DNA from: a virus
Lineage: Duplodnaviria > Caudoviricetes
Reading direction: 5' to 3' (one strand)
IMG/VR virus record: IMGVR_UViG_3300017913_001781
Coordinates: 32,001-96,000 of that record
Length of the DNA stretch: 64,000 bases
Positions 34,284-49,453 of the stretch are shown here, piece after piece. The notes under the pieces were generated by a model. The model was given only the letters and a program-made list of their open reading frames with translations, was not told the DNA's origin and made no database searches. Both the position numbers and the translations under genes were made by a program. The first letter of the stretch is position 1. Each line of letters opens with the position of its first letter.

Positions 34284-34652
34284 ATGAAAACATTTTTAGA
34301 ATATCTAAACGAGCAAGACATTTCAGAAAAAGATCTTCTTATTTTAAACGAAGGTCTTCAAAGCGAGTGGACCGATGAATTAGAAGCTAAAGTCGATGAA
34401 GCTATAAATGCATTTGCGTCTGAATACATGCTAGAAGACGGAACTTATGATATCGATAGATTCAATGAAGAAATGACCAATGAAGGTATATTGGGTAGTA
34501 TTATAGGTGGTCTTACTGGTTTTGCTCTAGGTAAATCAGTTGGTAAATTAATAGCTAAAGTTTTAGGTGTACAAAAGGGTGTATTATATGACCTTCTGAC
34601 TTCAAGATTAGTTGGCGCAGCTTTAGGAGCTTCTCTGGGAAAAAGATTTTAA
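34284..34652 (+). CDS. Putative capsid-internal protein: acidic pro-region plus glycine-zipper amphipathic C-terminus
   Basis: Starts MKTFLEYLNE (like the T4 capsid targeting sequence); C-terminus GILGSIIGGLTGFALG... Confidence 0.55.
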   Translation: MKTFLEYLNEQDISEKDLLILNEGLQSEWTDELEAKVDEAINAFASEYMLEDGTYDIDRFNEEMTNEGILGSIIGGLTGFALGKSVGKLIAKVLGVQKGVLYDLLTSRLVGAALGASLGKRF

Positions 34653-34653
34653 A

Positions 34654-35304
34654 GTGAATTACGTAGCAGTAGACTTTTCTCTTAACTCTCCTGGCATTTG
34701 CATTTACAATGACAAGAGTAAAAAGTACCAATTTATAAGTTATATTAAAACAAAAACGGGTACAAAGGCCGAACAAGCTTTTCAAGAAGACATATCTAAA
34801 CTTAAGGATGTGGCCTTAATTTATCAACCTGACTTTACAACAAGCGATGCTTACTCAAGCCAAGAGTTGAATAAAATTAAAAGATATGATAAGATGGCAG
34901 ATGATATTGTCAATCTTATATTACAAGAGTCTCAGCAAGGAGACGGTTATACTATAGCATTTGAGGGTACAAGCTATGGTTCAAAAATGGGAACTAATAA
35001 TATGATTGATATGGCAGCCGGCGCTGCAATCTTAAAACTAAAAATGTTAAAGATCTTTAAACCTGAAGATATTCAAACAATTGCTCCAACTACAATCAAG
35101 AAATTTGCAGGTAAAGGTAATATGAATAAATTACAATTATGTCAGGCCTTTTTAGATAATGTAAATGGAGATCCATTTTTAATGAAGGGAGAATTATTTC
35201 ATTTTGTTACTAATAACATAACCATTGAAAAGAAAATTCCAAAGCCATTAGATGACCTTATTGATGCTTATTTTCTTTCAGCTCTTTTGGCATCAAAAGC
35301 TTAA
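34654..35304 (+). CDS. RuvC-like Holliday junction resolvase
   Basis: 'AVDFSLNSPG', 'IAFEGTSYG', 'APTTIKKFAGKGNMNK', 'DDLIDAY'; GTG start. Confidence 0.85.
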   Translation: MNYVAVDFSLNSPGICIYNDKSKKYQFISYIKTKTGTKAEQAFQEDISKLKDVALIYQPDFTTSDAYSSQELNKIKRYDKMADDIVNLILQESQQGDGYTIAFEGTSYGSKMGTNNMIDMAAGAAILKLKMLKIFKPEDIQTIAPTTIKKFAGKGNMNKLQLCQAFLDNVNGDPFLMKGELFHFVTNNITIEKKIPKPLDDLIDAYFLSALLASKA

Positions 35305-35401
35305 AGCCTATTCTTTCCCTGAAACCTAAAACCATTTATTGTATGCTAGTTGCCACGTTATGTTTCATGAAGAAACAAAAAGAAAAAGAGATATATAAGA
35401 T

Positions 35402-35629
35402 ATGTTGATGATTGATATAAATTATCCTAACATGGACATAAACACGTATGAGTTTCTTCAACTCAATAAGATCCTCAATAAAATGGTGTCAAATGGCCTA
35501 ATTTCTCAAGAAGAAAAAGAAGAGCTATTACACAAATCAGGGCTGATTAAGCTAGAGGATGGAAGTTGGAGACCTACGAAAGATGATCCATCGATGAAGA
35601 CTAAGATATTTCTTTCTGAAACTCTTTAA
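35402..35629 (+). CDS. Hypothetical protein
   Basis: 75 aa ORF; the start may be the later ATG (MDINTYEF). Confidence 0.55.
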   Translation: MLMIDINYPNMDINTYEFLQLNKILNKMVSNGLISQEEKEELLHKSGLIKLEDGSWRPTKDDPSMKTKIFLSETL

Positions 35630-35645
35630 GATTTAAAGGTATAAC
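35617..35645 (+). promoter_or_regulatory. Putative middle promoter TGAAAC-N17-TATAAC upstream of the SSB gene
   Basis: Recurrent motif before replication genes. Confidence 0.6.
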
Positions 35646-35696
35646 AAGCAACTTAAAGCTAATTTTAAGGTATTAACAAATTAAAGGTTTTTTATT

Positions 35697-36608
35697 ATGG
35701 CAGATTTTGATATTTTCAATCTCGGAGTTGAGGACGTAGAAACACATACTCAACAAACAACTACCTCAGCAAATGAGGTTTACAAGCCTACCGCAGATGA
35801 CGGTAAGGACGGAACTTATAAGGCGCTCGTTCGCTTCGTTCCAAACCCAGCTAACCCCCGTAATTCTCTTATTCAGAAGTACGTTCACTGGTTGGTTGAT
35901 TCTAATGGTGATGGCAAGATTGTCGATTCACCTCAAACAATCGGCGAGAAGTGCCCAATTGCAGATGTTTTCTGGAAGCTTCGTAAGTCCGATTCAGCTG
36001 TTGATCGCAAGACTTCAGACAAGCTTAAGCGTCGTCAACAGTACTATGCACTAATTAAGATTATCAAGGATCCTCAGAATCCGGATCTTGAAGGTCAATA
36101 CAAAGTATTCAAATTCGGATATAAGATCAAAGAAAAGATCGATGCTGAGTTGAAGCCTGACTTTGGAGAACCAACACAAGTCTTTGACCTTTTTGAAGGT
36201 AAGAACTTTGAGTTGATTATCACTCGTCAAGGTGAATATAACAACTACGATAAGTCTAAGTTCTCTGCATCTCGCTCTGCAGTCGTTATCAACGGCGAAC
36301 CAGCTGAGCGTAGCAAAGAGGCTATGGAAACCATCAAGACTGAACTTGAAGGTGCTCCTGACTTGTCAATGTATGACTATCAAGCATGGGACGAGGACAC
36401 CCGCGAGTTCGTCAACAACGTACTTCGCATGTACCTCAACCCAGGAGACTCTATTGCTGAAGTCACTCCAAGTGCTGCGCCTAAAACGCAAGCAAAGAAA
36501 GAGCCAGTCGCCACTCCGGTTACTGCTACCACCGAGTCAACATCAGACACTACTTCGGTCAGCACTGATGACGACCTTGATTCTTTCTTGAATGACCTCG
36601 ACATCTAA
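35697..36608 (+). CDS. Single-stranded DNA-binding protein, T4 gp32-like
   Basis: 'ALVRFVP', 'GEKCPI', 'DPQNPDLEGQYKVFKFGYKI', 'NYDKSKF', acidic tail 'DDDLDSFLNDLDI'. Confidence 0.92.
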   Translation: MADFDIFNLGVEDVETHTQQTTTSANEVYKPTADDGKDGTYKALVRFVPNPANPRNSLIQKYVHWLVDSNGDGKIVDSPQTIGEKCPIADVFWKLRKSDSAVDRKTSDKLKRRQQYYALIKIIKDPQNPDLEGQYKVFKFGYKIKEKIDAELKPDFGEPTQVFDLFEGKNFELIITRQGEYNNYDKSKFSASRSAVVINGEPAERSKEAMETIKTELEGAPDLSMYDYQAWDEDTREFVNNVLRMYLNPGDSIAEVTPSAAPKTQAKKEPVATPVTATTESTSDTTSVSTDDDLDSFLNDLDI

Positions 36609-37662
36609 TCTTACAGAGGATCTAAAGCACAAGATAAAGCTCGCGCTTAAGGAAGTAGTAGTTCAAGAACACGCTGCTTCCAATAAGCAAACCCTACGGG
36701 ACATGTCAGGACGAATAGTCTTGGCATGTCCTTATTGTGGGGATTCCCATAAAGATGATACCAAAAAAAGAGGTAACATATATTGGGATACGCTTCAGTA
36801 TCATTGCTATAACTGTAGTCATCACACTAACCTATTTGGTTTCTTAAAGGACCATGGTGTTAGAATGCCAAATACTGGCGATTCATTCGACGTTATAGAC
36901 TATATTAAAGCTAATGAGAGAAGTGTTAAGAAGGTTGAAACACTTCGTCACAATGTATTTACTAAGGCTGATGAACTTGCTATTCCTATAGATAAGTTTA
37001 AGCAGTATTTTGGAGCAGTCGATATTGAACCTGGAGATTGGATTTGGTTTAAGCTTAAAGAACGTTTGCTTCATCATATGGCCGATCACTTTTTATTTTC
37101 TAATAAGGATCAAAAATTATGGATTCTTAACAAGACTCCAGAGGGCAATATATTGGCCGCTCAAAGTCGTCGTATGAAGGGCAAAGGTTCCAGATATCTT
37201 ACGTATGATTTACCTAAGTTGTACGAAGAAATGAATATAGAACTAAACTTAGAAGAAGAAGATCTTGTTAAGGTAAGTAAAGTTTCAACTTTATTTGGCA
37301 TTATGCAACTTAACTTTCAACGAGACGTTACTATTTTTGAAGGGCCATTAGACGCTAAGTTTATGTCTAACTCACTTGCATTAGCTACAGCCGGCAGATC
37401 AACTCAAGAGTTTGATGAGATGGCGACAGTAAGATATATGTTTGATAACGATAAAACAGGCCGAGAAAAGATGGCAGAAAAACTTAAGAAAGGAAGGCCA
37501 GTATTTATGTGGTCCAAATTCTTAAGCGAAAATAAGCTAGATACATATAACATAAAAGACTTAAACGATCTTATGATCGTGTGTTACCGAGAGGGGTCTA
37601 AGGCTTATAAAAGAATAAATGAATACTTCACTACAAGCCCGCTAGACTTATGGTACGTATAG
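36592..37662 (+). CDS. DNA primase, T4 gp61-like
   Basis: Zn ribbon 'CPYCGDS...HCYNC'; TOPRIM 'IFEGPLDA', 'FDND', 'KDLND'. Confidence 0.9.
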   Translation: MTSTSNLTEDLKHKIKLALKEVVVQEHAASNKQTLRDMSGRIVLACPYCGDSHKDDTKKRGNIYWDTLQYHCYNCSHHTNLFGFLKDHGVRMPNTGDSFDVIDYIKANERSVKKVETLRHNVFTKADELAIPIDKFKQYFGAVDIEPGDWIWFKLKERLLHHMADHFLFSNKDQKLWILNKTPEGNILAAQSRRMKGKGSRYLTYDLPKLYEEMNIELNLEEEDLVKVSKVSTLFGIMQLNFQRDVTIFEGPLDAKFMSNSLALATAGRSTQEFDEMATVRYMFDNDKTGREKMAEKLKKGRPVFMWSKFLSENKLDTYNIKDLNDLMIVCYREGSKAYKRINEYFTTSPLDLWYV

Positions 37663-37871
37663 AAGATATAACAAAAATGGTTGAAGAAGATTTAGATAAT
37701 TTCTATGAAGATGGAAAGAGATTTAAAGGTCATAAGTTATTACTTGACTTTGATAGCTCCGAATATGATGTAGAATTACCTGAAACAGAGTCTATAAAAC
37801 CAAAGTTTAAAAAGAAAAAGAAGGCTAGCGTGTTCGTTAAGCCTAAATCGAATAGAAGATCGCTATTTTAA
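37650..37871 (+). CDS. Hypothetical protein
   Basis: 73 aa, acidic N-terminus and basic C-terminus; coupled to neighbours. Confidence 0.6.
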   Translation: MVRIEDITKMVEEDLDNFYEDGKRFKGHKLLLDFDSSEYDVELPETESIKPKFKKKKKASVFVKPKSNRRSLF

Positions 37872-38296
37872 TGGGAAGTAAAGAAAAAATATTAGAAATC
37901 GATGAGCGCTTAGGTAAGCAAAGGGGTGAATGGTCTGAAAAGATCAAAGAACTCGCTGATAGCCTTAAGTATATTAATGGTATGGAAGAAACCATTGCTA
38001 AAGTACTTTCGTCTCGCCAAACGCTAATCGACCAAATCGCATATATAAACACTAAGATTCGCGCGCAGAAGGCAACCCTTGCTAGTCGAAACCGCGAAGC
38101 TTATATTAGATATTTTGAGTATGACTATAAACTAGGAGAGAAGCAAAAAGTAATGTTTATGGAGGCAGACTTAGCCGATGACAATACTATATTAGCTCAC
38201 TTAGAAAACCAACTCGAATTTCTAAAAGAGTCGGTAAAGACCCTAGATAATATGGGTTTTGCCATCCGAAACAGACTTGCACTCAAGGATCTGTAA
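37871..38296 (+). CDS. uvsY: Recombination mediator UvsY-like
   Basis: 141 aa helical protein ending 'VKTLDNMGFAIRN', immediately upstream of uvsW. Confidence 0.7.
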   Translation: MGSKEKILEIDERLGKQRGEWSEKIKELADSLKYINGMEETIAKVLSSRQTLIDQIAYINTKIRAQKATLASRNREAYIRYFEYDYKLGEKQKVMFMEADLADDNTILAHLENQLEFLKESVKTLDNMGFAIRNRLALKDL

Positions 38297-38319
38297 GGAG
38301 AAGAAAACAACGAGTCAAT

Positions 38320-39828
38320 GTGGAACTTAGCTTAACAGAAAATAATCAGTTTCTAAGAGTAGATTCAGCGACAGAGTTAGAAATAGAACAACTCAACATC
38401 TCACTTACTAAGAGAATAGAATCATGGCGATTCAATCCTTTGGTCAAGCGAGGTGTCTGGGATGGTTACGTCTCGTATATTAAAGATGACAAATGGATTC
38501 CTTCTGGTTTATGGAAAGAAATTATGGATACGTGTAAGGAGTATTCATATGACCTTAAATTAAACGGAGTCACTGATCTTTTTGATAAAAGCGTTAACCA
38601 AGAAGAATTTGAAGCTTGGGCTTTAGACTTCTTTAAAGACTCTGAGATTACGCCACGCGACTATCAAATGGATGCAGCTTTTAACATCTTAAAGTTTAGA
38701 AGATGTTTGGCAGAATTAGCTACCTCAGCAGGTAAGACTCTTATTTCTTTCTTAGTAGTAGCATATATGCTTGAAAAGAAAAAGGCCAATAAGGTCTTAT
38801 TTATAGTACCTAACGTTTCACTTGTAGTTCAAGCTACTGAAGACTTTATGGACTATAACTATAAGAATCAGGTTAGTATTAAGATTCAACAAATCTACTC
38901 AGGCCAAAAGATTAGAGCTGGCCGTAATGTTGTTATTGGAACGTATCAATCTCTTGTTAAAAAGAACAAAGAGTATTTCGAGCAGTTTGATGCTGTTATC
39001 ATTGACGAGACACATAAGGCTAAGTCTAATTCTATTAAGACTATCTTGCAGAAGTGTGTATCGGCTAAGTATCGTTTTGGTTTGTCAGGAACTATTCCTA
39101 AAAGAGGTAAGTTAGACAGACTCACTTTGATGGCTTACACCGGTCCTGTTATTACAGAAGTCAGTGCTAATTTCTTGCAAAAACAAGGACATATTGCCGG
39201 TTGCAAAGTTAAAGTCATTGAAATGGATTATGCGCCAGATTCTACGAAACAAGCTTTCATGGAAATGGCAATGAACAAATACGAAAGCAAAGACGTATTT
39301 AAATTTGAACAAAACTACGTAATAAATTCCCCCGGTAGACTAAACTTTATTACGAATGTCATATCTAAAATTCCCCGAAATTCCCTTGTCTTGTTTCATC
39401 GCATCGAACATGGTAAAAAGCTTTATGAGAAGCTCAGACAGGATAGCGATAAGGTTGTCTATTATGTAGATGGAGGTACTGATAAGGACATAAGAGAAGA
39501 ATACAAGAAAAAGATGGAAGCCGGTGAAGAAGTAGTAATTGTAGCTTCATACGGCACTTTCTCTACTGGAATTTCTATTAAGAAAATACACAACATTTTC
39601 TTCACAGAATCATTCAAATCCGAGGTCATTATTAGACAATCTATTGGTCGTGGACTTAGACAACATAAATCAAAAGAAGAAGTTATTATTGTAGACTTTG
39701 TTGATGATTTATCTTCTCCAGAGTGGTTCAATTACTTAATGAGACATGCTAATGCGAGGCAGCGTATTTACAAGGAACAGAAGTTTAGCTATAGCGTGAA
39801 AAAGGTTCAATTTGAAGGAGATATATAG
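38320..39828 (+). CDS. uvsW: SF2 DNA helicase UvsW
   Basis: 'PRDYQ', 'ATSAGKT', 'DETH', 'GLSGT', 'QSIGRGLR'. Confidence 0.93.
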   Translation: MELSLTENNQFLRVDSATELEIEQLNISLTKRIESWRFNPLVKRGVWDGYVSYIKDDKWIPSGLWKEIMDTCKEYSYDLKLNGVTDLFDKSVNQEEFEAWALDFFKDSEITPRDYQMDAAFNILKFRRCLAELATSAGKTLISFLVVAYMLEKKKANKVLFIVPNVSLVVQATEDFMDYNYKNQVSIKIQQIYSGQKIRAGRNVVIGTYQSLVKKNKEYFEQFDAVIIDETHKAKSNSIKTILQKCVSAKYRFGLSGTIPKRGKLDRLTLMAYTGPVITEVSANFLQKQGHIAGCKVKVIEMDYAPDSTKQAFMEMAMNKYESKDVFKFEQNYVINSPGRLNFITNVISKIPRNSLVLFHRIEHGKKLYEKLRQDSDKVVYYVDGGTDKDIREEYKKKMEAGEEVVIVASYGTFSTGISIKKIHNIFFTESFKSEVIIRQSIGRGLRQHKSKEEVIIVDFVDDLSSPEWFNYLMRHANARQRIYKEQKFSYSVKKVQFEGDI

Positions 39829-39852
39829 AAAAAGTAAAATATTACTATAATC

Positions 39853-40482
39853 ATGAATAAATTACAAGACTTTAATAGCTTTGCTTCTGCTAAAAGACAA
39901 GAGGCTCAAATCAAGTTAGAGCAAGAGCAAGAAGCGAAAAGAACATCTAGTGCCGAAACATTTAAATCTCTTTTAGCAGAATACGGCGTAACAGATCTTA
40001 ATGAATTAGATGAAGAACAAAAAACTTCTTTCTTTTTAAAGTTAAGAGGCGGAGAAGTAAACGAGGACGTTAACTATATGATTGATAGATTAGAAGAGGC
40101 ATATTCAGTTACTGAAGCTGAAGTTAAGTCTGAAGAAGAGTTTCAAGAATATGCAATGACTGTCTTGAAAAAAGCATTTGGTGAAGATTTTGATGAAGCT
40201 AAAGCACAAGAAACTATCGATGGTATTCTTGGTAAGGCAAAAGGAGACTATGGTGCAGCTATAGGTATGCTAACATCTTCTTTAGGAGAATCAGTAAAGG
40301 TCAATGAATCCGATATTAAATCAGACGAAGATTTTAAAGAGTATGCATTCTCAGTTCTTCAAAAAGCATTTGGAGACGAGTTTGACGAAGCAAAGGCTCA
40401 AGAAGTAGTAGACGGAATTCTATCTAAAGCCGGCGGTGATTATGGTGAAGCTGCGGGTATGCTACAAAGCTCACTTGGATAA
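39853..40482 (+). CDS. Putative capsid-internal/core protein with a duplicated ~57-aa helical domain
   Basis: Acidic; repeats at about 40117-40286 and 40309-40479; each preceded by V-x-E. Confidence 0.55.
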   Translation: MNKLQDFNSFASAKRQEAQIKLEQEQEAKRTSSAETFKSLLAEYGVTDLNELDEEQKTSFFLKLRGGEVNEDVNYMIDRLEEAYSVTEAEVKSEEEFQEYAMTVLKKAFGEDFDEAKAQETIDGILGKAKGDYGAAIGMLTSSLGESVKVNESDIKSDEDFKEYAFSVLQKAFGDEFDEAKAQEVVDGILSKAGGDYGEAAGMLQSSLG

Positions 40483-41771
40483 TGAATAAAATCCTATTAT
40501 ATAGAGATTTTTTAAATGAAAGAGCGCAGCCCATAGACATGGGCTATTCTCTTGTTATGGAGGGCGGTGCAGCTGGTCATATGAATCATCCATTTGATGA
40601 TAAGTCTTTAACTTTTGGAGACTTTAAAAAGATTGTAGAATACGGTCTTAGAGGAGAACTTAATTTCGAAGAAGCTGCTACTGAAAAAACAGATGGACAA
40701 AACGTATTTGCCACTATTCAAGATGGTGAGGTAAAGTTCGCTAGAAACAAGACAGAACTAATCACGCCAATGGACTTGAATACATTTAAGCAAAAATTTG
40801 ATAACCATGCAAGCGCTATGGTTGAAGAGACTTTTAAGTTGGCCGCTGAAGATTTAGCATCTCAGTTAATGAAATTACCAAATAATGTTCAAGAAGAAAC
40901 ATTTGAAAATGGACTTAATTGGATGAATATGGAATTGATCTATTCTAGAAACCCAAATGTTATTTATTATGACAGAGATGTAATTCAATTCCATGGTATC
41001 AAGAAGACTGATGGTCAAGGTAATATTATCGGAGAAGATAATAAACCAGCATCTTCATTAGTTAAAGCATTGGCAGCAGTTAAAGCGAATGTTGGTAAAA
41101 CATTTACAATAATTCCCCCACAAATCATTAAGCTTGGTAAAGACATAGATTTTGAAACCAATAGAACTAAATTCTTAAAACAAATTGAAGTACTTAGAAA
41201 TAAGTATAATTTAACCGATGCTGATGAAGTATCGCGTTATCATGAGATGTGGTGGAGAGATCAAATTGAAGAAACTTTTGGCGAATTAACACAAGACCAT
41301 AAAGAAGGGCTTTTACTAAGATGGGCTTATGGTGATAAAAAGACTCTTAACCTAAGACAGCTTAAGAAAGAGGTTACTTCAGACCAAATGGATGCTATTA
41401 AAAAATATGATAAAGAAGACGTTAAGAAAAAGTACAAAGAAAACATTAGACCATTTGAAGATTTATTCCTAGAATTGGGTTCTATTATTCTTAAGAACGC
41501 CTCTAACTTTGTCGCTGCTAATCCAAGCGCAGAAATGCAAAGATTACATAATCAAATTAGAACAGAAGCTGAAAAAATTAAAAAAGGAGGCGACGTTAAT
41601 CAAATTAAAAAGGTTGAAGCAGAGCTTGCAAGATTAGAAAGAATCGGAGGAGTAGAATCTATTATGCCAACCGAGGGTATAGTATTCGTGTATAAAGGTA
41701 AAACATTTAAGCTTACTGGAACTTTCGCTGCTATAAATCAACTTATGGGAATTATAAAATACGGCAGATAA
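40482..41771 (+). CDS. RNA-ligase/capping-fold nucleotidyltransferase-like protein (DUF6267-like)
   Basis: 'EGGAAGHMNHP'; motif I 'TEKTDG', Ia 'ARNK', III 'NMEL', IV 'EGIV', V 'FKLTG'. Confidence 0.7.
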   Translation: MNKILLYRDFLNERAQPIDMGYSLVMEGGAAGHMNHPFDDKSLTFGDFKKIVEYGLRGELNFEEAATEKTDGQNVFATIQDGEVKFARNKTELITPMDLNTFKQKFDNHASAMVEETFKLAAEDLASQLMKLPNNVQEETFENGLNWMNMELIYSRNPNVIYYDRDVIQFHGIKKTDGQGNIIGEDNKPASSLVKALAAVKANVGKTFTIIPPQIIKLGKDIDFETNRTKFLKQIEVLRNKYNLTDADEVSRYHEMWWRDQIEETFGELTQDHKEGLLLRWAYGDKKTLNLRQLKKEVTSDQMDAIKKYDKEDVKKKYKENIRPFEDLFLELGSIILKNASNFVAANPSAEMQRLHNQIRTEAEKIKKGGDVNQIKKVEAELARLERIGGVESIMPTEGIVFVYKGKTFKLTGTFAAINQLMGIIKYGR

Positions 41772-43612
41772 TGGCACTTCAAGATCTAAGAAAACATTTT
41801 AATTCAGTTAATAGAAACGAGTTTATGGCTTTGTTAAAGCAAAGATGCTTGGTTACTGAAAAAATTCAAGCTTCTTCCTTTCATGTTAGAAATACAGATA
41901 AAGGCTATGACTACTATAAAAGCGGTTCTAAAACACCTATGAATAGGGTTGATAGAACAATAGTTAGGTATTATGAAAGTGCTATTGACTATTTTAGATC
42001 TATTCCTAAAGAAGTTAGAGAAGATATGCCAAAGGATTGGAAATTTGGTTTTGATTACATGACTGAAAAAAGAACAGTTGATATTCAATACGATGCTCTT
42101 CCCAAAAACAATCTTATATTAACACATATTCAAGTTTTAAATCCAACTGACCCAACTCAAATTAAGAAAGTAATTAGAGACCCTAAAGTTCTTGAAAAAT
42201 GGTCTAATATGTTACAAGTTCAGGCTCCTCCTATATTATTCAACGGAGTTTTAGATTCTAATCAAAAAGACATGTTAGTTGAGCTTTTAGAAATGAATAA
42301 TGAATCATTTAAGAACGTATTTGAAAATACTTCCTTTACTAGAAAGGTCTATAGTATTTTTAATCACATGGCAAATAAGACCGCTCTCAATGAAGGTTTA
42401 GATGGAGATATAGATTCGCTTATAGTTTCTTTTATAGACAAAAAGAATATTAAGAACTTTAAACTTGGTAGATTTGATAAAGTTGAAGAAAAAGAAAGAG
42501 AAGCTTCCGACATGTATCAAATTACTATTCTAGATCTTGTCGAGTATATGACTCAGTTCAATATGGATGATGTAAAATTGGTAGAAGAAGATACAGACTT
42601 AAGATACATTGAGCTAGTTTCAGAGATATTTAATCAATATATGTCTAAGAACGCCGTCAAGTATATAGGCGCTGAGTTTGATTCGGCGGGTTTTTCTAGT
42701 AGAAAGGGATTTGAACTCAATAAAGACTTTATCAAAAACGAAGGCACGGTAAAGCTAATTCAAAACGAAGATTTATCGGAATTATTTAAGATTATGTTGG
42801 GATCATTTAGAAAAAAAAGAACAAAAGAAACCAAGATCATAAATGCCGACCTTATGTCTCAAATGAACGAAATTGTAGAAAAGATAGAGTCCGCCGTCTT
42901 TGCAAAAAAGAATGAATCAGAGATTATGACATTTAATACTTACTTAAAGCAAGAAAAGCTAAAAACCCAAGTTAGTCCAATTATTGAAGCGCTAACAGTC
43001 GAACATCCTGATCAGGGGGCAAAGCCGGTTAATATGTTTGTTGGTAGATTCCAACCTTTTACATTAGGACACGCTAAAGTTATAGACGCTATTCATAAAC
43101 AAAACGGTTATCCCGTTGTTATTTTCTTAGTTAAGTCAAAGACTAAGAAAAAAGAGGATGCATTTAAAAGACCCTATTCTGAAGAACTACAAATTGAAAT
43201 GTTGGAAAAACTAAAAAAGAAGTATCCAATTGAAGAGGTATTTGTTATACCTTCTGCAGCCATCGACAAAATGTTTAATGAAATGAGACCTAAATATGAA
43301 CCGGTTCTTTGGGGAACTGGAACTGATAGATTAAAGGTTTATAGCTATCAAGTAGATAAGCAAGAATATAGAGATGATTTAGGCGTCAGAGATGATTTTG
43401 GACTGTTCGAGATACCAAGAACTGGTAAGAATATTTCAGCAACTCAAGTTAGAAATGCAATGTTAGCTGGAGATGAAAAAGAGTTTAAGAAGCTAACACC
43501 GAGGGAGATTCATTCGATGTATTTAAAACTTAAAGATACGTTAGAGCAATCAATGGCAACAATGGAGTCCACGTCAAACATTATGACTTTCAATCAGTTC
43601 TTAAAATCCTAA
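41771..43612 (+). CDS. Degenerate ligase-fold domain fused to an HxGH-class nucleotidyltransferase (cytidylyl/NMN-adenylyltransferase-like)
   Basis: N-terminal 'TEKIQAS'; C-terminal 'GRFQPFTLGH', 'GTDR', 'ISATQVR'. Confidence 0.75.
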   Translation: MALQDLRKHFNSVNRNEFMALLKQRCLVTEKIQASSFHVRNTDKGYDYYKSGSKTPMNRVDRTIVRYYESAIDYFRSIPKEVREDMPKDWKFGFDYMTEKRTVDIQYDALPKNNLILTHIQVLNPTDPTQIKKVIRDPKVLEKWSNMLQVQAPPILFNGVLDSNQKDMLVELLEMNNESFKNVFENTSFTRKVYSIFNHMANKTALNEGLDGDIDSLIVSFIDKKNIKNFKLGRFDKVEEKEREASDMYQITILDLVEYMTQFNMDDVKLVEEDTDLRYIELVSEIFNQYMSKNAVKYIGAEFDSAGFSSRKGFELNKDFIKNEGTVKLIQNEDLSELFKIMLGSFRKKRTKETKIINADLMSQMNEIVEKIESAVFAKKNESEIMTFNTYLKQEKLKTQVSPIIEALTVEHPDQGAKPVNMFVGRFQPFTLGHAKVIDAIHKQNGYPVVIFLVKSKTKKKEDAFKRPYSEELQIEMLEKLKKKYPIEEVFVIPSAAIDKMFNEMRPKYEPVLWGTGTDRLKVYSYQVDKQEYRDDLGVRDDFGLFEIPRTGKNISATQVRNAMLAGDEKEFKKLTPREIHSMYLKLKDTLEQSMATMESTSNIMTFNQFLKS

Positions 43613-43643
43613 TATATAGAAAAAGAAAATAAACTACATAAAT

Positions 43644-46139
43644 ATGAAATTCCAAGATTTCCTAAATGAAAAGAAAGTAACGTTAAAGAGACGTTACACT
43701 GAAAATCATCCAGCGATGGAAGCTGGTTTAACGGCAAGAGTCAGAAACAAAATGATAGAAGCGGTTGCTGATGGCACGTTAACTCAAGAAGAGTTTAATT
43801 CTATTTTATCTGAATTAAGCAATGATTCTAAAAGATGGATGACCAGAAATGCAAAATACTTTAATGTATCAGAAGACGGTATCACATTATCTAGATTTGG
43901 TAAAAGAGTTCTTAAAACATTTGCAATTAATGAAAATGAAGGCTTTATTTTAGAATCTACGCGTTCTCAAATTGGTATCATTGATAGAAGAGGCGTTATT
44001 CACTCTACATATGTTCATAGCGATGGTTATCCAGAAGGTGTAGGCCAAATGGCAAAAGATCATTTTTCTGACACTAAAAAGATGAAAGAACTATTAAAAC
44101 TTGGAAAGAATGGTATTTCATATTTAGAGCCTGGTATTGAAGGTGGTGAAGGACACCACTTTAATACACCAATCGATGGTCAAACAGTATTTTATGGTAG
44201 AGATAGAGGCGAAACTAAATACAATATGACTCAAAAAAGAAAGTTAGAAGATCTAGATGATTATCTACAAGATGTTGCCTTTGATGGTGCAGAATATGTT
44301 TATCTTTGGGATGAAAAAGAAAAAGAGTGGAAGTACGCAGTTGCTAAAACTAAAGACGGTAGACAAATGGGTCTTCAAGTCCTAGAGTCTGAGTTAATAG
44401 AAGATGATGTTATAGAAGAAGGTAAATATGAAGATATGTTAGATAAAGGAGATGGACATATTCACTTTATTTTAAAGGATGAAAAGACTGCTGAAAAATT
44501 AGCTGATAAAATTGAAGAGGAAGGTTTAGGTGATTGTGATTTTTATCCTCAAGGTAAAAAGATTTACTTAAGAGTTTCTTTAACAGGGCAGGAAAATAAA
44601 GCAAATTCTAATATACCTAAGATAGAAAAGATTGTAGGTATGAAAGCTAAGTCTGGCTCACCAGAAACATGGGATGGTTCTATGTTGGGTGAAGGTAGAA
44701 ACGCATTTATTACTGCAGCTAGAGCAGCTAAAGCAGAAGGTTTAAAAGAATTTGAATTTAAGGGTAAAACCTTTCCGGTTACAGTAAAAGATGTAAGTGA
44801 GGAAGCTCCCGAAGTAGAAGAAACAAAAGAAGTTACAGAAAATAAATTAGTCTCAGAATCATTTGGAAAGTTTATTGCTTCTCTAAATGAAGAAAATGTT
44901 AATGAATGGGGAACTTCTGATAGCTATGCTATGAGTGAAGTAATTCACTATATGATTAGAAAGCCTAAAAACATGCCATCTCCGTTTGATAAAAAACTAA
45001 GAGATGCGGCTGAAAGTGCAGTTGATAGATATTGGGATGAGTGGCCTGAATACAAAACCAATTATGAAGGTTTAGTAGACGACGCCGTTAGAACTTATTT
45101 AAGACATTTTCATAGAGAAGAGTTTAAATTGGCCCAAAGAATGTTTGAGCCAGTAGAGTCAAATTCTATTGAAGTAGGAGAGGACGTTAACGAGGCATTT
45201 AAGTCAGCCAAATTAGCTCAACTTTTTAATACTAAAATATCTCGCAGTTGGTCTTCTAGCTCATTAAAGGACTTACCTAAAGCTTTTTATAACATGGCTA
45301 ATATTGCTTTAGATAAAGTAGAGGATGAAGATATAATTGATATGAGTGCAGCTGAAGCGCATGCTATAACTAGAAAGGACAAAGATAATCGCTATGTTAT
45401 ATTTTACGTAGTAGATCAACAAAAAGAAAATCCGCATGCTGGTTACGAAGGGCAAAAAACTATCCCAGCTGGTATTTTGGCTATTGTTAAGGGTAATCAA
45501 TTTCAAGGCATGGCATGGGGCCGTAATTCATCCGGCCACGGCCGAACTTTAGCATCTAGCGAACCTGGTGATAGCGTAGGTATTAGTAAAAAGTATAAAG
45601 GCTGGGATTCAACGGGCCTTTACAATCCTAAGAGAATTTCAGAGGTTGCAGATAGAGCAGTTGTCTTAGATACTGCGGTACTTAGAGATAAGTATTCAAC
45701 TGCTGGAAAGATGGCTGATAGAGCAGCCGCTAAGAAAGGTGCAATCGCTTTTAAATCAGATAAAGATTTCAAAAGAGAAAATATGAAGCGATATAAAGAG
45801 ATCTTAGCAGACAAAGCAGCTAACTTACCTCTAGATAAAATGGTTAAGGACGCGGTAGATGCTTTAACTTTACAAATTCAACAGGGTCTAGCTAAAGGTG
45901 AAGTCGAAAATGGAGAGCCCTTAATCGGTAGAAATTCAAAGGGTAGAGCAGTAAAAATGAGAGACGCCGCTAATCATATGTCTCAGATTTTAGATAATTA
46001 CTCAAACTATGTGAGATATTCTAATGAAGCTCAAAGCGGTCTTATTGGATCTAGCTATTACGAAACAAGAGTTAAGGACGAAGCCAAGCTTATCAAAGAC
46101 AGAATTGATAAAATTGAAAATATGGACTATGCCTGGTAA
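43644..46139 (+). CDS. Multi-domain putative capsid-internal polyprotein
   Basis: Starts MKFQDFLNE; modules separated by acidic [ILV]-x-E linkers; contains a 'STRSQIG...YVHSDGYPEGVG' domain. Confidence 0.6.
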   Translation: MKFQDFLNEKKVTLKRRYTENHPAMEAGLTARVRNKMIEAVADGTLTQEEFNSILSELSNDSKRWMTRNAKYFNVSEDGITLSRFGKRVLKTFAINENEGFILESTRSQIGIIDRRGVIHSTYVHSDGYPEGVGQMAKDHFSDTKKMKELLKLGKNGISYLEPGIEGGEGHHFNTPIDGQTVFYGRDRGETKYNMTQKRKLEDLDDYLQDVAFDGAEYVYLWDEKEKEWKYAVAKTKDGRQMGLQVLESELIEDDVIEEGKYEDMLDKGDGHIHFILKDEKTAEKLADKIEEEGLGDCDFYPQGKKIYLRVSLTGQENKANSNIPKIEKIVGMKAKSGSPETWDGSMLGEGRNAFITAARAAKAEGLKEFEFKGKTFPVTVKDVSEEAPEVEETKEVTENKLVSESFGKFIASLNEENVNEWGTSDSYAMSEVIHYMIRKPKNMPSPFDKKLRDAAESAVDRYWDEWPEYKTNYEGLVDDAVRTYLRHFHREEFKLAQRMFEPVESNSIEVGEDVNEAFKSAKLAQLFNTKISRSWSSSSLKDLPKAFYNMANIALDKVEDEDIIDMSAAEAHAITRKDKDNRYVIFYVVDQQKENPHAGYEGQKTIPAGILAIVKGNQFQGMAWGRNSSGHGRTLASSEPGDSVGISKKYKGWDSTGLYNPKRISEVADRAVVLDTAVLRDKYSTAGKMADRAAAKKGAIAFKSDKDFKRENMKRYKEILADKAANLPLDKMVKDAVDALTLQIQQGLAKGEVENGEPLIGRNSKGRAVKMRDAANHMSQILDNYSNYVRYSNEAQSGLIGSSYYETRVKDEAKLIKDRIDKIENMDYAW

Positions 46140-46197
46140 AATTAAAAAAGTATTTTGGGAATATTGGATAAAACCATGGCACCCCATTTCAAATTAA
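46129..46197 (+). CDS. Candidate 22-aa Trp-rich micropeptide MPGKIKKVFWEYWIKPWHPISN
   Basis: Fills the intergenic gap, overlapping the upstream stop and ending 4 nt before the next ATG. Confidence 0.3.
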   Translation: MPGKIKKVFWEYWIKPWHPISN

Positions 46198-46201
46198 TAT
46201 T

Positions 46202-47371
46202 ATGCCCGCTCTTAGTAAAGTACAACAAAGATTAATGGGAATGGCTTACGCTTATAAGAAGGGTGAGCTTGACTCTAAAGATGCTAGTCAAGAGGTTAAA
46301 GATCTCGCAGATTCTATGACTCTTAAGCAGCTTAAGAAATTTGCTGCAACTAAACACGAAGGTTTACCAGAAAGAGTACCTGAAAATATTCAAGCCGGTC
46401 AAATTAATGGCATGGGTCCAATACAATTACCCGCTGACGGTTTACTTGGATCTGGAGATGTACCTGCTGGTAGGGGCGACGCAGAAGAAGAATATAAAAA
46501 AAAGAAAAAGAAGATGGCAAACTTCGAAGAATTTATAAATGGGTTAAATACTCAACCCAAATCAGGTGTTAATGAAACTAGATTTTACGCAATATTTCAA
46601 GGCGCAAAGCATGAAATTGAAGCAGATAGTCTATGGGCTGCAAAGCAAAAGGCTATCACAGATCTAAAGGTCAAAAAGAAAGATGTTGGATTATTGGCGA
46701 TTGTAAATGCAGACGAACATGATGATTTTTCTAAGGGAAAGAAGGGACAATTCCAATTTGAGTCTGATCAAGTCGACGAAGTTTATACCGGAACCGCATC
46801 TGATTTTAAATATGAATTTCCAAACCAATTTGAAGATGTCACGGGTTTTTCTGATAAAGCCATTAAAGGTATTAGAAAGAAAGGTAAAAATGGCTACGAA
46901 GTTAGAACTTCTACATATGCCGGTAAAGAATATATGGAAGCTGTTGGTAAACAAATGGGTCTAGAACTTAAAAAGTTTGAGAAGCATAGTAATATGTGCA
47001 TCACTGTTTATGAATCTGTTATCTCTGAAATCAGAACGTCTAGTTGGGGAGATTTAGAATATACAGAAGAAGATGTCAATAAAACTCACGGATGGTGTGG
47101 CACTTTAGCTAACGAATTAGGTGAAGATAAAGCTATGTTTTTAACTCATCAAGGAATTCATGACCTTCAAAAAAGACACATGGGTTTAACAGCTTGGGAA
47201 GCTTTAGCTGTTCTTAATTCAAAAGCAGGTAGACATGCGGCTGAAGCCTTTTTAGGAGGAGAAGCTGCCGCATCTGATACTACTTCAGCATTGATTTGGT
47301 ACTTTGGTAGTAAAAGAAAGGTACAGCAAGCTGCTAAAGAAGAAGCAGAGCTTCAATTTCCAAGTAAGTAA
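46202..47371 (+). CDS. Multi-domain putative capsid-internal polyprotein with DUF3008-like N-terminus
   Basis: 'MPALSKVQQRLMGMA..KKGE...LKKFAATKHEGLPERV'; internal MANFEEFIN; modules after VNE, VDE and ISE. Confidence 0.6.
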   Translation: MPALSKVQQRLMGMAYAYKKGELDSKDASQEVKDLADSMTLKQLKKFAATKHEGLPERVPENIQAGQINGMGPIQLPADGLLGSGDVPAGRGDAEEEYKKKKKKMANFEEFINGLNTQPKSGVNETRFYAIFQGAKHEIEADSLWAAKQKAITDLKVKKKDVGLLAIVNADEHDDFSKGKKGQFQFESDQVDEVYTGTASDFKYEFPNQFEDVTGFSDKAIKGIRKKGKNGYEVRTSTYAGKEYMEAVGKQMGLELKKFEKHSNMCITVYESVISEIRTSSWGDLEYTEEDVNKTHGWCGTLANELGEDKAMFLTHQGIHDLQKRHMGLTAWEALAVLNSKAGRHAAEAFLGGEAAASDTTSALIWYFGSKRKVQQAAKEEAELQFPSK

Positions 47372-47391
47372 TTAACATTTTAACAAAATTT

Positions 47392-47424
47392 AAAAAGCCC
47401 AGACTTTTAAGTTTGGGCTTTTTT
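47392..47424. terminator. Rho-independent (bidirectional-type) terminator ending the late block
   Basis: aaaaagcccagac-ttttaa-gtttgggctttttt. Confidence 0.8.
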
Positions 47425-47426
47425 AT

Positions 47427-47436
47427 GTATATTAGA
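47427..47436 (+). promoter_or_regulatory. Putative early promoter element GTATATTAGA (copy 1)
   Basis: Shared with 47921-47930, including upstream TTTTAACA and downstream TGTAA. Confidence 0.55.
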
Positions 47437-47442
47437 TATGTA

Positions 47443-47595
47443 ATGACAGACAATAAAAAAGATAAAGATATTCTAAACGGCCTTAATTTGCGCCACGTCG
47501 CTCAAATTGTGCGCCGTAAGATGATTACAAAATCAGTGCCTTCTAAAAAGAATTACACTCGTAAGAAGAAGCATAAAAATCAAGACGATCAATGA
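47443..47595 (+). CDS. Small basic protein (50 aa)
   Basis: ATG at 47443 after the promoter; ends SKKNYTRKKKHK. Confidence 0.6.
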   Translation: MTDNKKDKDILNGLNLRHVAQIVRRKMITKSVPSKKNYTRKKKHKNQDDQ

Positions 47596-47879
47596 AGCTT
47601 TTAATGTGTACCGAATGTAAAGACATCTTTAATCTCAAGTATGAGACTAAAGCATGTACTTGTAAAAAAACTAAAGGACGTTATATTGATGAACTAAATG
47701 CAACATATAGCGGACCTGCTATTCCTATTGGTTTTGCAAATTCAAGCTTTTTAGAAGCAGCTAGTCGGCAAAATTTTATGAATATTATAGAGAGAGACTC
47801 TAAAGATGTTTGTTGTGCAGGCGAAGAATTCACAGCCTTTATTATTCCAGAGTGGGCCACCTCGCTTGAAAAAATTTAA
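47592..47879 (+). CDS. Small Cys-rich (Zn-ribbon-like) hypothetical protein
   Basis: CTEC...CTC. Confidence 0.65.
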   Translation: MKLLMCTECKDIFNLKYETKACTCKKTKGRYIDELNATYSGPAIPIGFANSSFLEAASRQNFMNIIERDSKDVCCAGEEFTAFIIPEWATSLEKI

Positions 47880-47920
47880 CACTTTTTAACATTTCAGATT
47901 TTCAGGTTGACCAGAATTTC

Positions 47921-47930
47921 GTATATTAGA
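47921..47930 (+). promoter_or_regulatory. Putative early promoter element GTATATTAGA (copy 2)
   Basis: Repeat of the 47427 motif, upstream of a small-gene cluster. Confidence 0.55.
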
Positions 47931-47956
47931 CCTGTAACGTTAATCACAAACAAACA

Positions 47957-48172
47957 ATGATTAGAGCAAAACAACCCAAAAACGAGATCGTTATCGACCT
48001 CACCGGCCCCGAAGGCAACGCCAATGTTATCCTCGCTTATGCTAACCGATTTGCAAAGCAACTTGGCTATGACGCTGATAAGATTCTAGAAGAGATGACG
48101 AGCGGAGACTATGAAAATCTGATCAATGTCTTTGACTCTTACTTCGGTGACTTTGTAATCCTTGAACGCTAA
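47957..48172 (+). CDS. Conserved small phage protein
   Basis: 'IDLTGPEGNA...EMTSGDYENLINVFD..FG' is a widespread phage pattern. Confidence 0.75.
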   Translation: MIRAKQPKNEIVIDLTGPEGNANVILAYANRFAKQLGYDADKILEEMTSGDYENLINVFDSYFGDFVILER

Positions 48173-48191
48173 TTAATAAATCTTAAAAGAT

Positions 48192-48575
48192 ATGAGTAAC
48201 AAAATCAACTCCCTCGACCGCACTGCAGTCCGCCGTATTAATGACGATATTCAATCTGCACTTGATGCAGTAGCTAAGCGTTATGGTGTTCAGATCAAAG
48301 TCGGTAACTCTCGCTTCTCTAATACTAATTGTACTACTAAGATTGACATCTCTACTGTTAATGAAGGCGGAACAGTTATGACCAAAGAAGCTACTGATTT
48401 TAATCGCTTTGCCTCTAGCTTTGGTATTACTAAGAAGTTGGGTGATACTTTTGACTTCCGCTACGATACTTATGAGATTGTCGGTCTCAAGCCTCGAAGC
48501 TCAAAATACCCGGTTTTGGCCAAGAACCTTTCTAACGGCAAGACCTTTAAGTTTCCTGCAAATGTCATCAACTAA
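48192..48575 (+). CDS. Conserved hypothetical phage protein
   Basis: 127 aa; 'LGDTF...YEIVGLKPRSSKYPV...GKTFKF'. Confidence 0.75.
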   Translation: MSNKINSLDRTAVRRINDDIQSALDAVAKRYGVQIKVGNSRFSNTNCTTKIDISTVNEGGTVMTKEATDFNRFASSFGITKKLGDTFDFRYDTYEIVGLKPRSSKYPVLAKNLSNGKTFKFPANVIN

Positions 48576-48717
48576 TCAACTCACGGAACGGCTCGCTCTC
48601 CTTCGTGGAGCGCGAGCTAATCTTGCTCAATCTATCTCAGTTATGGAAGAGCAATATGAAGAACTTAATGTTCAAATAGAAGAAACTTTAGAAGAAATTC
48701 AAAAACAAAAATCATGA
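48562..48717 (+). CDS. Small coiled-coil protein (51 aa)
   Basis: 3' part of the listed 48409 ORF; plausible ATG at 48562 overlaps the upstream stop region. Confidence 0.55.
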   Translation: MSSTNQLTERLALLRGARANLAQSISVMEEQYEELNVQIEETLEEIQKQKS

Positions 48718-48851
48718 ATCAATACGCAATTAATCTCCTTAAAGAGGCGGGCTACTCACAGGCCACGATCGATCAAATGAACCCAAGTCAAATTCGAAAC
48801 TTGGCTCTTGAAATTGAAGCCGAACTCGAACAATTTAAAATGCAATCATGA
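48714..48851 (+). CDS. Small hypothetical protein (45 aa, MNQYAINLLKEAGYS...)
   Basis: Not in the ORF track; ATGA overlaps on both sides. Confidence 0.6.
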   Translation: MNQYAINLLKEAGYSQATIDQMNPSQIRNLALEIEAELEQFKMQS

Positions 48852-49078
48852 TCTGTACAGTAAAAGATTTTGTAATGTTTGGCTTTAACTTTCCGTCAAA
48901 CTTTGTTGAAAAAGCCTTTGAAAATCAAGGCGATTTGATGATTAATCATCTTAAAGAAAAATTTAATGCAGCTTACGATCAGGCTGGAAGTCGAGGTGCA
49001 ATGAACACCTTTTATGCTCAGCTTGACGGTAAAAACCAATTTCTTTTGGAGAATTACGTTGCTGAATATTATTCTTGA
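48848..49078 (+). CDS. Hypothetical protein
   Basis: 76 aa, ATGA-coupled. Confidence 0.65.
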   Translation: MICTVKDFVMFGFNFPSNFVEKAFENQGDLMINHLKEKFNAAYDQAGSRGAMNTFYAQLDGKNQFLLENYVAEYYS

Positions 49079-49100
49079 TAATTAGCGTTACACCTAAGTT

Positions 49101-49137
49101 AAAGGCAGTGAAACTTTCGCTGCCTTTTTCATATAAA
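49101..49137 (+). terminator. Terminator hairpin overlapping a TGAAAC-N17-TATAAA promoter
   Basis: aaaggcag-tgaaactttcg-ctgcctttttc then atataaa. Confidence 0.7.
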
Positions 49138-49151
49138 TAAAAAGTTATGAT

Positions 49152-49451
49152 ATGGCCAATAATATACTAGACCAAGCAAATAAGATTATCAACGAACGAT
49201 CAGAAGAGAAAGAACGCCAATATGGACCTTTCGAAGAAGGCATGCGTCGAGCTGCCATGATTTGTTCAGGAATGACAGGTAAAGAGTGGAATGGCTCTGA
49301 TATGTACGCTGCTCTTGTTGCACTTAAGCTTAGCAGACACTCTTATAACTATAAAGAAGACAACCTTCTTGATGCTGTAGCGTATCTCGGTGCTCTTAAC
49401 AATTATGTTGAAAAGCACGGCTATGGCGAATCAGAAGATCCAATTAAATAA
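49152..49451 (+). CDS. DUF6378-like nucleotide-modification-associated protein
   Basis: 'ILDQANKII...RQYG...ALKLSR...EDNLLDAVAY'. Confidence 0.7.
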   Translation: MANNILDQANKIINERSEEKERQYGPFEEGMRRAAMICSGMTGKEWNGSDMYAALVALKLSRHSYNYKEDNLLDAVAYLGALNNYVEKHGYGESEDPIK

Positions 49452-49453
49452 GT

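Follow-up and report, generated by a model that had tools for sequence, protein, structure and literature searches.

What do two overlapping phage genes do for their virus when each encodes a ligase-like fold and one is extended by a further nucleotidyltransferase, and do their products enter the host together with the phage DNA? These questions are raised by a locus in a 64,000-nucleotide stretch of DNA (the window), which corresponds to bases 32001-96000 of a 122,950-bp IMG/VR virus record with an estimated completeness of 41%. P0001 (40482..41771, plus strand, 429 amino acids (aa)) encodes a predicted intact RNA-ligase-like covalent nucleotidyltransferase, and P0002 (41771..43612, plus strand, 613 aa) combines a ligase fold with an NMNAT-like nucleotidyltransferase. 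Both open reading frames (ORFs) are open on the plus strand, and the coupling that an initial annotation of this DNA had claimed for them takes the form of a TAATG overlap, which also links P0001 to the ORF before it, at 39853. The locus is a translationally coupled enzyme cassette. The ligase domain of P0001 defines a large unnamed family that is unrecognised by the profile libraries searched, and a full-library search at E ≤0.001 placed its relatives in 1,802 clusters (50% identity).

Ligase fold and active site of P0001

P0001 is a member of the covalent nucleotidyltransferase superfamily by its fold and by motifs I, Ia, III, IIIa, IV, and V. These motifs, named on the basis of their order, spacing, and strand positions in the structural model, are KTDG (residues 69-72), ARNK (87-90), NMELIY (149-154), IQFHG (168-172), EGIVF (398-402), and KTFKLTG (407-413). 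Two family alignments were used, one of 44 sequences sharing 33-95% identity and a second of 42 long multidomain relatives. Residues K69, D71, G72, R88, E151, Y163, E398, G399, and K410 were invariant in the 44-sequence alignment and in the matching columns of the multidomain relatives, and T412, G413, and R280, the last of which lies in a helical module, were invariant in the 44-sequence alignment. The full motif set that the initial annotation had read in this ORF was thus found in place and invariant across the family. Motif I (40686..40697, plus strand) contains K69, the predicted adenylylated lysine; the pattern EK[TLVIM]DG was present in 143 of 150 family representatives, and in the VIA structure comparison the offset of K69 from the start of the aligned range was that of the nucleophile K170 in NgrRnl. 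Motifs IV and V, the latter with K410, occupy 41673..41720 (plus strand) and hold invariant residues. The ligase domain opens with a nearly invariant Gly/His motif, GGAAGHMNHPFDD (40563..40601, plus strand), in which G28, G29, G32, H33, and H36 were each conserved in at least 90% of the 44 aligned sequences, and most of the 150 representatives open their ligase domain with GGAAGHMxHPFD. A second KTDG, at residues 175-178 (41004-41015), does not coincide with the invariant motif I and might deceive a motif scan.

The AlphaFold model of P0001 had a pLDDT of 89.1 and a pTM of 0.84, with disorder confined to residues 1-31. Its best Foldseek matches were the ligase domains of T4 Rnl1 and fungal Trl1. 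The VIA scores were 9.6 for NgrRnl, 8.8 for Trl1-LIG, 8.6 for Rnl1, 8.4 for REL1, and 7.9 for Rnl2, with DNA ligases at 7.8 or below, and every one of the best 50 matches was a ligase or a capping enzyme; the alignments span residues 26-429 yet pair only about 185-200 residues. A BFVD search returned the family's own members first and named RNA ligases next, and the closest structural relatives there were labelled "cytidyltransferase-like domain-containing proteins". An all-helical module (41151..41651, plus strand; approximately residues 224-390) is inserted between motifs IIIa and IV and contains R280 in the model. Everything outside the nucleotidyltransferase core was helical, and the model contained no OB domain. 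The ligase fold that had been proposed for both P0001 and P0002 was borne out by structure prediction and by Foldseek and VIA matches to ligases, and we regard the fold assignments of the pair as close to certain. We infer from the motifs that P0001 is an intact RNA-ligase-like enzyme, and it is predicted to be catalytically active.

RNA ligases are of few kinds and are heavily used as tools. P0001 differs from NgrRnl (Rnl5), Trl1-LIG, T4 Rnl1, T. brucei REL1, and T4 Rnl2 in having no profile match to Pfam RNA_ligase or to PDB chains, in carrying its ~165-residue helical module as an insertion between motifs IIIa and IV rather than as an N- or C-terminal appendage, and in combining GGAAGHMxHPFD at the domain start with a near-constant HxGH nucleotidyltransferase partner. 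It also differs from ATP-dependent DNA ligases and mRNA capping enzymes, as no OB-fold domain follows the core. The finding lies within a known enzyme superfamily and is widespread and unmatched in the profile libraries searched; its interest lies in a family of about 1,800 clusters with an unusual inserted-domain topology, a near-constant nucleotidyltransferase partner, and no match in Pfam, NCBIfam, or PHROG.

P0002 and the linkage of ligase and nucleotidyltransferase

In the N-terminal domain of P0002 (41771..42910, plus strand; approximately residues 1-380), a ligase fold resembling those of Rnl2 and Trl1 precedes a helical domain. The P0002 model had a pLDDT of 72, and Foldseek matched this domain to Trl1-LIG-KIN at 2e-7 and to T4 Rnl2 at 3e-7. 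Its motifs are TEKIQAS (residues 29-35), FGFDYM, DSLIV (215-219), and KNFKLGR (228-234), and their order is canonical, with motifs I to V preceding the helical domain, unlike the topology of P0001. The marine clade retains K31, D95, D215, K228, and K231, whereas huge-phage homologues have N/D/N in place of K31 and Q/E/N in place of D95 and have lost the motif V lysines. Because this domain family persists independently of its catalytic residues, a non-catalytic role is likelier. As judged from these substitutions the domain is probably inactive, and it may serve as a non-catalytic RNA-binding or partner module. The initial annotation had called it a degenerate paralogue of P0001. The ligase fold and probable erosion, the latter suggested by the huge-phage homologues, agree with that description, whereas paralogy does not: BLASTP and hhalign of the family alignments detected no relation between P0001 and the P0002 N-terminal domain, a hidden Markov model of the latter gave zero matches among 150 P0001-family representatives, and the helical module is placed differently in the two proteins. 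With all of these comparisons empty, the paralogue reading was dropped. Complex prediction of P0002 (residues 1-600) with P0001 (residues 32-429) returned a score of 0.00, which gives no verdict and speaks neither for nor against binding, and hence neither for nor against the heterodimer proposed by the initial annotation.

The C-terminal domain of P0002 (43019..43555, plus strand; approximately residues 417-595) belongs to the NMNAT/NaMNAT/PPAT class of (T/H)xGH nucleotidyltransferases. Its signature motifs, both on the plus strand, are GRFQPFTLGH (43043-43072, residues 425-434) and ISATQVR (43433-43453, residues 555-561). The fusion to an HxGH nucleotidyltransferase announced by the initial annotation was therefore right as to the domain class and inexact as to the motif, which reads TLGH, with Thr at the first position (TxGH, not HxGH); the Thr variant of the HxGH motif is known from PPAT. 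Pfam CTP_transf_like matched the domain at 4.8e-10, and Foldseek matched it to PPAT and NadM at 1.3e-5. The VIA scores were 14.7 for NadD, 14.1 for the archaeal (M. jannaschii) NMNAT, and 13.7 for PPAT, so that the PPAT and NMNAT matches were tied within 1 Z unit. Archaeal/NadM NMNATs were the top-scoring named entries among NCBIfam models and PDB chains, the NCBIfam scores falling far short of the NMNAT equivalog cut-offs (TIGR01527, 28.1 versus 181.2 bits; PRK01153, 31.5 versus 127), and the sole NCBIfam model above its cut-off was the general cyt_tran_rel domain. By these sequence and structure comparisons the domain is a real nucleotidyltransferase of the NMNAT/PPAT class.

The association of the ligase with such a nucleotidyltransferase extends far beyond this locus. 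Most members of the P0001 family are multidomain proteins of 500-2,000 aa that end in the ligase domain, and the consensus of the 42 multidomain relatives opens with a GRFQPF...H nucleotidyltransferase. Pfam CTP_transf_like was found in 22 of these 42, and by motif count an HxGH-type motif occurred in at least 82 of 129 family representatives of at least 560 aa; the nucleotidyltransferase preceded the ligase in 75 and followed it in 4. The Microcystis phage Mel-JY01 encodes a 639-aa nucleotidyltransferase-ligase fusion annotated just as "cytidylyltransferase like", and one stand-alone ligase relative has a separate CTP_transf_like gene four genes upstream. A P0001-like gene stood immediately 5' of the P0002 relative in 79 of 80 IMG/VR relatives, and the huge phage LR756500 keeps the pair in the same order. 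Since ligase and nucleotidyltransferase are nearly always found in one polypeptide or in adjoining genes, they probably work as a unit, and we hold this conclusion with good confidence. The fusion within P0002 itself is recent and variable, since relatives sharing up to 91% identity measure 420-426 aa and have no nucleotidyltransferase. In Synechococcus phage metaG-MbCM1 the nucleotidyltransferase match (NC_019443.1 146499-147059) is annotated "NrdB ribonucleotide reductase A subunit", and the BFVD entry H8ZNG8 (728 aa), which bears the same NrdB name, matches the P0001 model; the label is probably wrong for what would be a nucleotidyltransferase plus ligase-like protein.

T4-like cyanophages offer a comparison. 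Their "cytidyltransferase" (GC190; P-RSM4 gp191, S-CREM2 gp154) is of the same nucleotidyltransferase class as the P0002 C-terminal domain. In Prochlorococcus phage P-RSM4 (L096:1291-3433) the DUF6267 gene gp190 (4.8e-89) overlaps the start of the cytidyltransferase gene gp191, and gp190 shows KWDG, EGFV, and H-x-x-H-x-x-D in the order found in P0001. In S-CREM2 (OR473000 122030-125468) a uvsW helicase, an Sm-like protein, and the gp55 sigma factor precede, in this order, the virion cytidylyltransferase gp154, whose position downstream of uvsW echoes the placement of our gene block after a UvsW-like helicase. Unlike the situation in those cyanophages, the nucleotidyltransferase described here is fused behind a second ligase-like domain, which they do not have. 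DUF6267 appeared in 23-24% of the members of ESM-feature neighbours of P0001. The DUF6267 Pfam model had no match in the genome at E ≤10 and matched 0 of 44 P0001 relatives at 0.01, P0001 itself had no Pfam match at E ≤0.1, and hhalign and hmmsearch with two profiles gave nothing significant between the P0001 family and P-RSM4 gp190. The profile methods thus gave no link between the two; kinship is suggested only by the shared motifs, the ESM features, and the order of the genes, and the ligase-like KWDG and EGFV motifs suggest that DUF6267 is an unrecognised ligase-fold family. A ligase-then-nucleotidyltransferase cassette may be general in T4-like cyanophages.

Proposed RNA repair and its alternatives

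The partners gathered by the family bear on function. The ligase was also found fused to P-loop kinases (Zeta_toxin/AAA_33), to a PolyA_pol head and the RNA-binding domain that goes with it, to an ADP-ribosyltransferase, and to DUF5661 and ROS_MUCR. One T4-like contig carried a complete CCA-adding enzyme with an HD domain directly 5' of the gene for a kinase-ligase protein, and in the contig of another relative a HAD_PNKP gene lay 8 kb upstream of the ligase gene. A kinase, a 3'-end repair enzyme, and a ligase form a tRNA healing and sealing set, as in T4 Pnkp/Rnl1 and Trl1. Because relatives add PNK-like kinases and CCA-adding enzymes, we favour repair of RNA, chiefly tRNA. The initial annotation held that the substrate could not be read from sequence, and we agree; it is the fusions and neighbourhoods that tilt the balance. 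That the set repairs RNA, chiefly tRNA, cut by host defence nucleases is a reading to which we give slightly less than even confidence. By the standard mechanism, ATP would react with Lys69 of P0001 to give lysyl-AMP, the AMP would be moved to a 5'-phosphate end, and attack by the 3'-OH would seal the break; the inserted helical module probably grips the substrate. Bacterial Pnkp-Hen1 offers a parallel, as it unites a kinase and a ligase-like adenylyltransferase for repair and its ligase can seal only with the help of another protein, which mirrors the idea of an active ligase with a non-catalytic partner. The present system differs from Pnkp-Hen1 in that neither a Hen1 methyltransferase nor a metallophosphoesterase domain was detected and in that the partner is a second ligase fold joined to an NMNAT-like domain.

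Several observations weigh against RNA repair. An HxGH nucleotidyltransferase is not known to act in RNA repair. P0001 had no match in Pfam, NCBIfam, or PHROG, and Pfam RNA_ligase (PF09414) matched only 1 of 44 P0001 relatives, at 0.0011, and nothing in the genome. Searches of the PDB sequences with P0001, both as a single sequence and as a profile, also gave no meaningful match. No tRNA gene was found within the window, and the 123-kb record contained no CCA enzyme and no recognisable PNKP phosphatase. Kinase and CCA fusions were a minority of the long relatives scanned and could reflect mere co-delivery; in polyvalent phage proteins, fused domains need not act in one pathway (PMC5512222). 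As a separate observation, a 146-aa ORF with an AAA_33 P-loop kinase match (2.4e-11; record 20993-21319, outside the window) lies 50 kb from the pair.

Least well explained of all is the NMNAT-like domain, which could supply NAD+ or act on a terminal RNA phosphate. The first option leads to a reading centred on NAD+, in which the domain would rebuild NAD+ at the start of infection, either to counter NAD+-depleting defences or to feed injected ADP-ribosyltransferases as part of host takeover, while the ligase-like domain would carry out a linked adenylyl transfer other than sealing. The best-scoring named relatives of the nucleotidyltransferase, by sequence and by fold, are indeed NMNAT, NadM, and NadD; one relative carries a Tox-ART-HYD1 ADP-ribosyltransferase domain; the P-loop kinases of relatives could be nucleoside kinases; and the S-CREM2 authors see in the virion cytidyltransferase a homologue of NMNAT with a role in tuning NAD+ (PMC10665884). 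The domain also shares GRFQP...GH and IS-x-T-x-x-R with the phage NMNATs of NAD+ salvage (NadM/NatV-type NMNAT-Nudix; NARP2), from which the present system differs in that no Nudix domain and no Nampt partner were seen and the nucleotidyltransferase is fused to or adjoins ligase folds instead of salvage genes. We nevertheless judge the NAD+ reading unlikely: the domain scores well under all NMNAT equivalog cut-offs (e.g., 28 versus 181 bits), PPAT matches tie with the NMNAT matches, the invariant and complete ligase active site would be left without a role, and the fusion to a CCA-adding enzyme and its occurrence in the neighbourhood would go unexplained.

A role for P0001 on DNA, sealing nicks or joining the ends of the incoming or replicating phage genome, could be suspected from the adjoining SSB, primase, and helicase genes, from the lack of a canonical DNA ligase (DNA_ligase_A_M) within the 123-kb record, and from the presence of DNA ligases among the VIA structural matches. 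This role is highly improbable. Relatives with the pair also encode a separate, canonical DNA_ligase_A_M protein, evidence against P0001 being the replicative ligase; an OB domain is missing from the model; RNA ligases scored above DNA ligases in Foldseek, VIA, and BFVD; and the kinase and CCA-enzyme partners point to RNA. It is also very unlikely that the pair makes another nucleotide-linked product, such as a 5'-cap or adenylyl group on RNA or protein, or a dinucleotide signal, as the OB domain of capping enzymes is absent, RNA ligases ranked clearly higher in VIA, and Pfam scans of the relatives gave no methyltransferase or triphosphatase partners.

A bolder version of the repair proposal would make the ligase and the NMNAT-like domain a single, undescribed RNA end-joining chemistry delivered as capsid cargo. 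In one variant, the HxGH domain would nucleotidylate a terminal RNA phosphate (AppRNA or 3'-pp-A) and hand the activated end to the ligase, by analogy with its relatives, the RNA phosphomonoester taking the place of NMN or phosphopantetheine as acceptor. In the other, the HxGH domain would regenerate NAD+ locally, and its ligase partner would be the first RNA ligase to depend on NAD+. Taken together, these two variants seem quite unlikely; if either held, the injected machine would neutralise tRNA-cleaving defences before phage gene expression.

Tag-like motifs and capsid packaging

The initial annotation further proposed that both proteins carry motifs like a capsid targeting sequence (CTS) and are packaged in the virion. 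The CTS of T4 is MKTYQEFIAE (10.1101/2021.01.19.427310), in which residues 4 and 7 act in targeting and residues 8 and 10 in processing; the protease gp21 cleaves after L/I-x-E, and T4 Alt is trimmed at both ends (PMC9026906). P0001 begins with a propeptide-like segment (40482..40562, plus strand; residues 1-27) that was disordered in the model (pLDDT <50). It contains the CTS-like YRDFLNE (40500-40520, plus strand), a variable linker, and LVME (40551-40562, plus strand) directly before the conserved GGAAGHMxHPFD. Residues Y7, F10, L11, and E13 have the spacing of the T4 determinants, shifted by 3. Among 118 close relatives the first ~27 residues varied, while an aromatic-x-x-F-[LIV]-x-E pattern and L-[IV]-[LM]-E before GGAAGH were kept. 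P0001 shares with the T4 internal proteins and Alt the aromatics three apart followed by an aliphatic residue and Glu, the (L/I/V)-x-E sites, and a gp21-family protease in the genome; it differs from the internal proteins in the three-residue shift and in that the cargo would be nucleic-acid enzymes and not basic proteins.

P0002 presents a different picture. Its interdomain linker (42923..42991, plus strand) contains the tag-like IMTFNTYLKQ and a conserved SPIIE/A, where the slash marks the candidate cut; residues 379-415 had a pLDDT of <50, and SPIxEAL was conserved in P0002 relatives. The strings VME/GGAAGH (P0001 residues 24-33) and IIE/ALT (P0002 residues 404-409), which had been put forward as cleavage sites, do exist. 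BLASTP gave a weak alignment (E 0.01) between the linker and the N-terminal stretch of S-CREM2 gp154 (MKNFSSFLTE...), which suggests that the P0002 fusion captured a tagged nucleotidyltransferase gene. At the C-terminus, the tag-like IMTFNQFLKS (43580..43609, plus strand) was kept in fused relatives and in stand-alone ones without the nucleotidyltransferase. The claim of CTS-like motifs on both proteins is indirectly supported for P0001, whose N-terminus matches the T4 determinants, and fails for P0002 in so far as it has no N-terminal tag.

The tags were enriched at protein N-termini. A scan of every ORF of the 123-kb record gave 9 occurrences of [FY]x[DE][FY][LI]xE, 4 of these within the first 13 residues of an ORF, against ~0.3 expected from the overall frequency for a pattern that was defined after seeing the data. 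The N-terminal cases include P0001 (YRDFLNE), its 831-aa neighbour (MKFQDFLNE), and the 122-aa ORF at 34284-34652 (MKTFLEYLNE); the fourth copy opens a 314-aa ORF at record 3237-4181, outside the window, which starts MGILKYIDFLNE. The 34284 ORF is the best CTS look-alike in the window, with the exact T4 register, M1, K2, T3, E6, and E10 shared with MKTYQEFIAE, aromatics in the fourth and seventh positions, and an aliphatic residue in the eighth. Across the family the exact T4 register was found in 16 of 142 representatives, against a background of 0.0011 per position, and the cyanophage cytidyltransferases also show it in their CTS-like N-termini MKNFSSFLTE, MKKFNAFLIE, and MKSFFQFLSE. The genome encodes a Peptidase_S77 domain of the gp21 prohead protease family (3.6e-14; record 107279-107626) inside a 649-aa ORF (record 107213-109162, outside the window) with internal YTEYLAE and YVDYLKE, which may be a protease-scaffold fusion. 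In three contigs and in Mel-JY01, the multidomain relatives stood 2-4 genes upstream of the terminase gene (TerL), and in a fourth contig the relative lay several genes upstream of a T4-type portal gene (Portal_T4); a gp21-type protease followed in two of the contigs. Adjacency to virion genes is the criterion from which packaging of polyvalent proteins is inferred in PMC5512222. Finally, the S-CREM2 cytidyltransferase was detected in purified virions by mass spectrometry with 3 peptides, and its authors state that cytidyltransferases are often detected in cyanophage virion proteomes (PMC10665884).

The long relatives (to ~2,000 aa) resemble the polyvalent proteins of Iyer et al. 2017 (PMC5512222), stringing together kinase, ADP-ribosyltransferase, Pol-beta nucleotidyltransferase, HxGH nucleotidyltransferase, and ligase domains. 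In the present window, by contrast, the modules are split into separate coupled genes. Term searches of that paper and of jumbo-phage reviews brought up no passage on this ligase family or on an HxGH-ligase pairing.

We consider capsid delivery somewhat better than an even proposition. The proteins would enter the prohead, where the gp21-type protease would trim them at (L/I/V)-x-E, and would then reach the host with the DNA, so that repair would be ready from the first minute. Packaging as first proposed thus retains indirect support from the tag, the gp21-type protease, the head-gene neighbours, and the virion relative in S-CREM2, and loses the N-terminal tag of P0002. If tRNA repair and travel in the capsid both hold, the pair would be a pre-loaded counter to anticodon nucleases and other tRNA-cutting defences; it would apply to abundant marine T4-like and jumbo phages, and it would give a function to the recurrent "cytidyltransferase" of cyanophage genomes and virion proteomes.

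Other findings favour a serious, less probable alternative, namely that the pair are ordinary cytoplasmic early or middle enzymes, unpackaged, whose F-x-x-[FY]-L motif docks some other shared partner. The block is co-directional with the replication genes and continuous from them, only 24 nt and no terminator separating it from the helicase gene, so that late expression is not evident. The T4 late promoter TATAAATA gave 11 matches versus 12 expected, with zero preceding the block. The tag-like strings of P0002 are internal and C-terminal, which is not the classical T4 CTS position. In many relatives Met or Cys takes the place of Glu directly before GGAAGH, and the site is therefore not a universal cleavage site. 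The evidence from S-CREM2 is weak, resting on the 3 peptides, and its authors caution that the virion signal is possibly carry-over (PMC10665884). Against an unpackaged pair stand the fit of the register to the mapped T4 CTS positions, the encoded gp21-type protease, the repeated adjacency of relatives to terminase, portal, and protease genes, and the processing of T4 Alt at both termini (PMC9026906).

Genome setting of the gene block

The phage is a large, uncultured, marine relative of T4 with T4-type replication and head genes. Its long ORFs are all on the plus strand. Larger contigs of the same clade measured 165-212 kb at 59-76% completeness, from which we estimate a genome near 280-300 kb. 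Genes for a gp32-type single-stranded DNA-binding protein (SSB), a primase, and a helicase lie 5' of the block; the nearest annotated relatives of the helicase gene are UvsW helicases, and its closest database relative is in the 462-kb metagenomic phage LR756500 (58% identity). A blastn search of the locus against phage genomes returned no match, and sigma-70-like sites were no more numerous than the shuffled expectation.

The coupled gene upstream of P0001 (39853..40482, plus strand) encodes 209 aa starting MNKLQDFNSF and was a neighbour in 72 of 80 related loci. Its protein contains, after a tag-like N-terminus, two ~65-residue repeats (...EEF.EYA..VL.KAFG.(D/E)FDEAKAQE..DGIL.KA.GDYG.A.GML.SSLG) and had no family match in Pfam and PHROG searches. 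Downstream, two further genes of the block (43644..47371, plus strand) encode 831 aa (43644-46139, starting MKFQDFLNE) and 389 aa, and a P0004-like gene occurred in 79 of the 80 related loci. In the 831-aa protein, residues 105-239 matched phrog_1987 and phrog_23089 at about 6e-20 and, by tblastn, stand-alone hypothetical genes of jumbo phages and cyanophages; outside these residues neither PHROG nor tblastn gave a match. The block is closed by a strong intrinsic-terminator-like hairpin (47392..47423, plus strand) with a 14-bp stem and a T run, the only strong plus-strand terminator across 35000-49500. In a related contig, the T4-type portal gene (L009:15103-16934) had Intein_splicing and HNH_3 matches.

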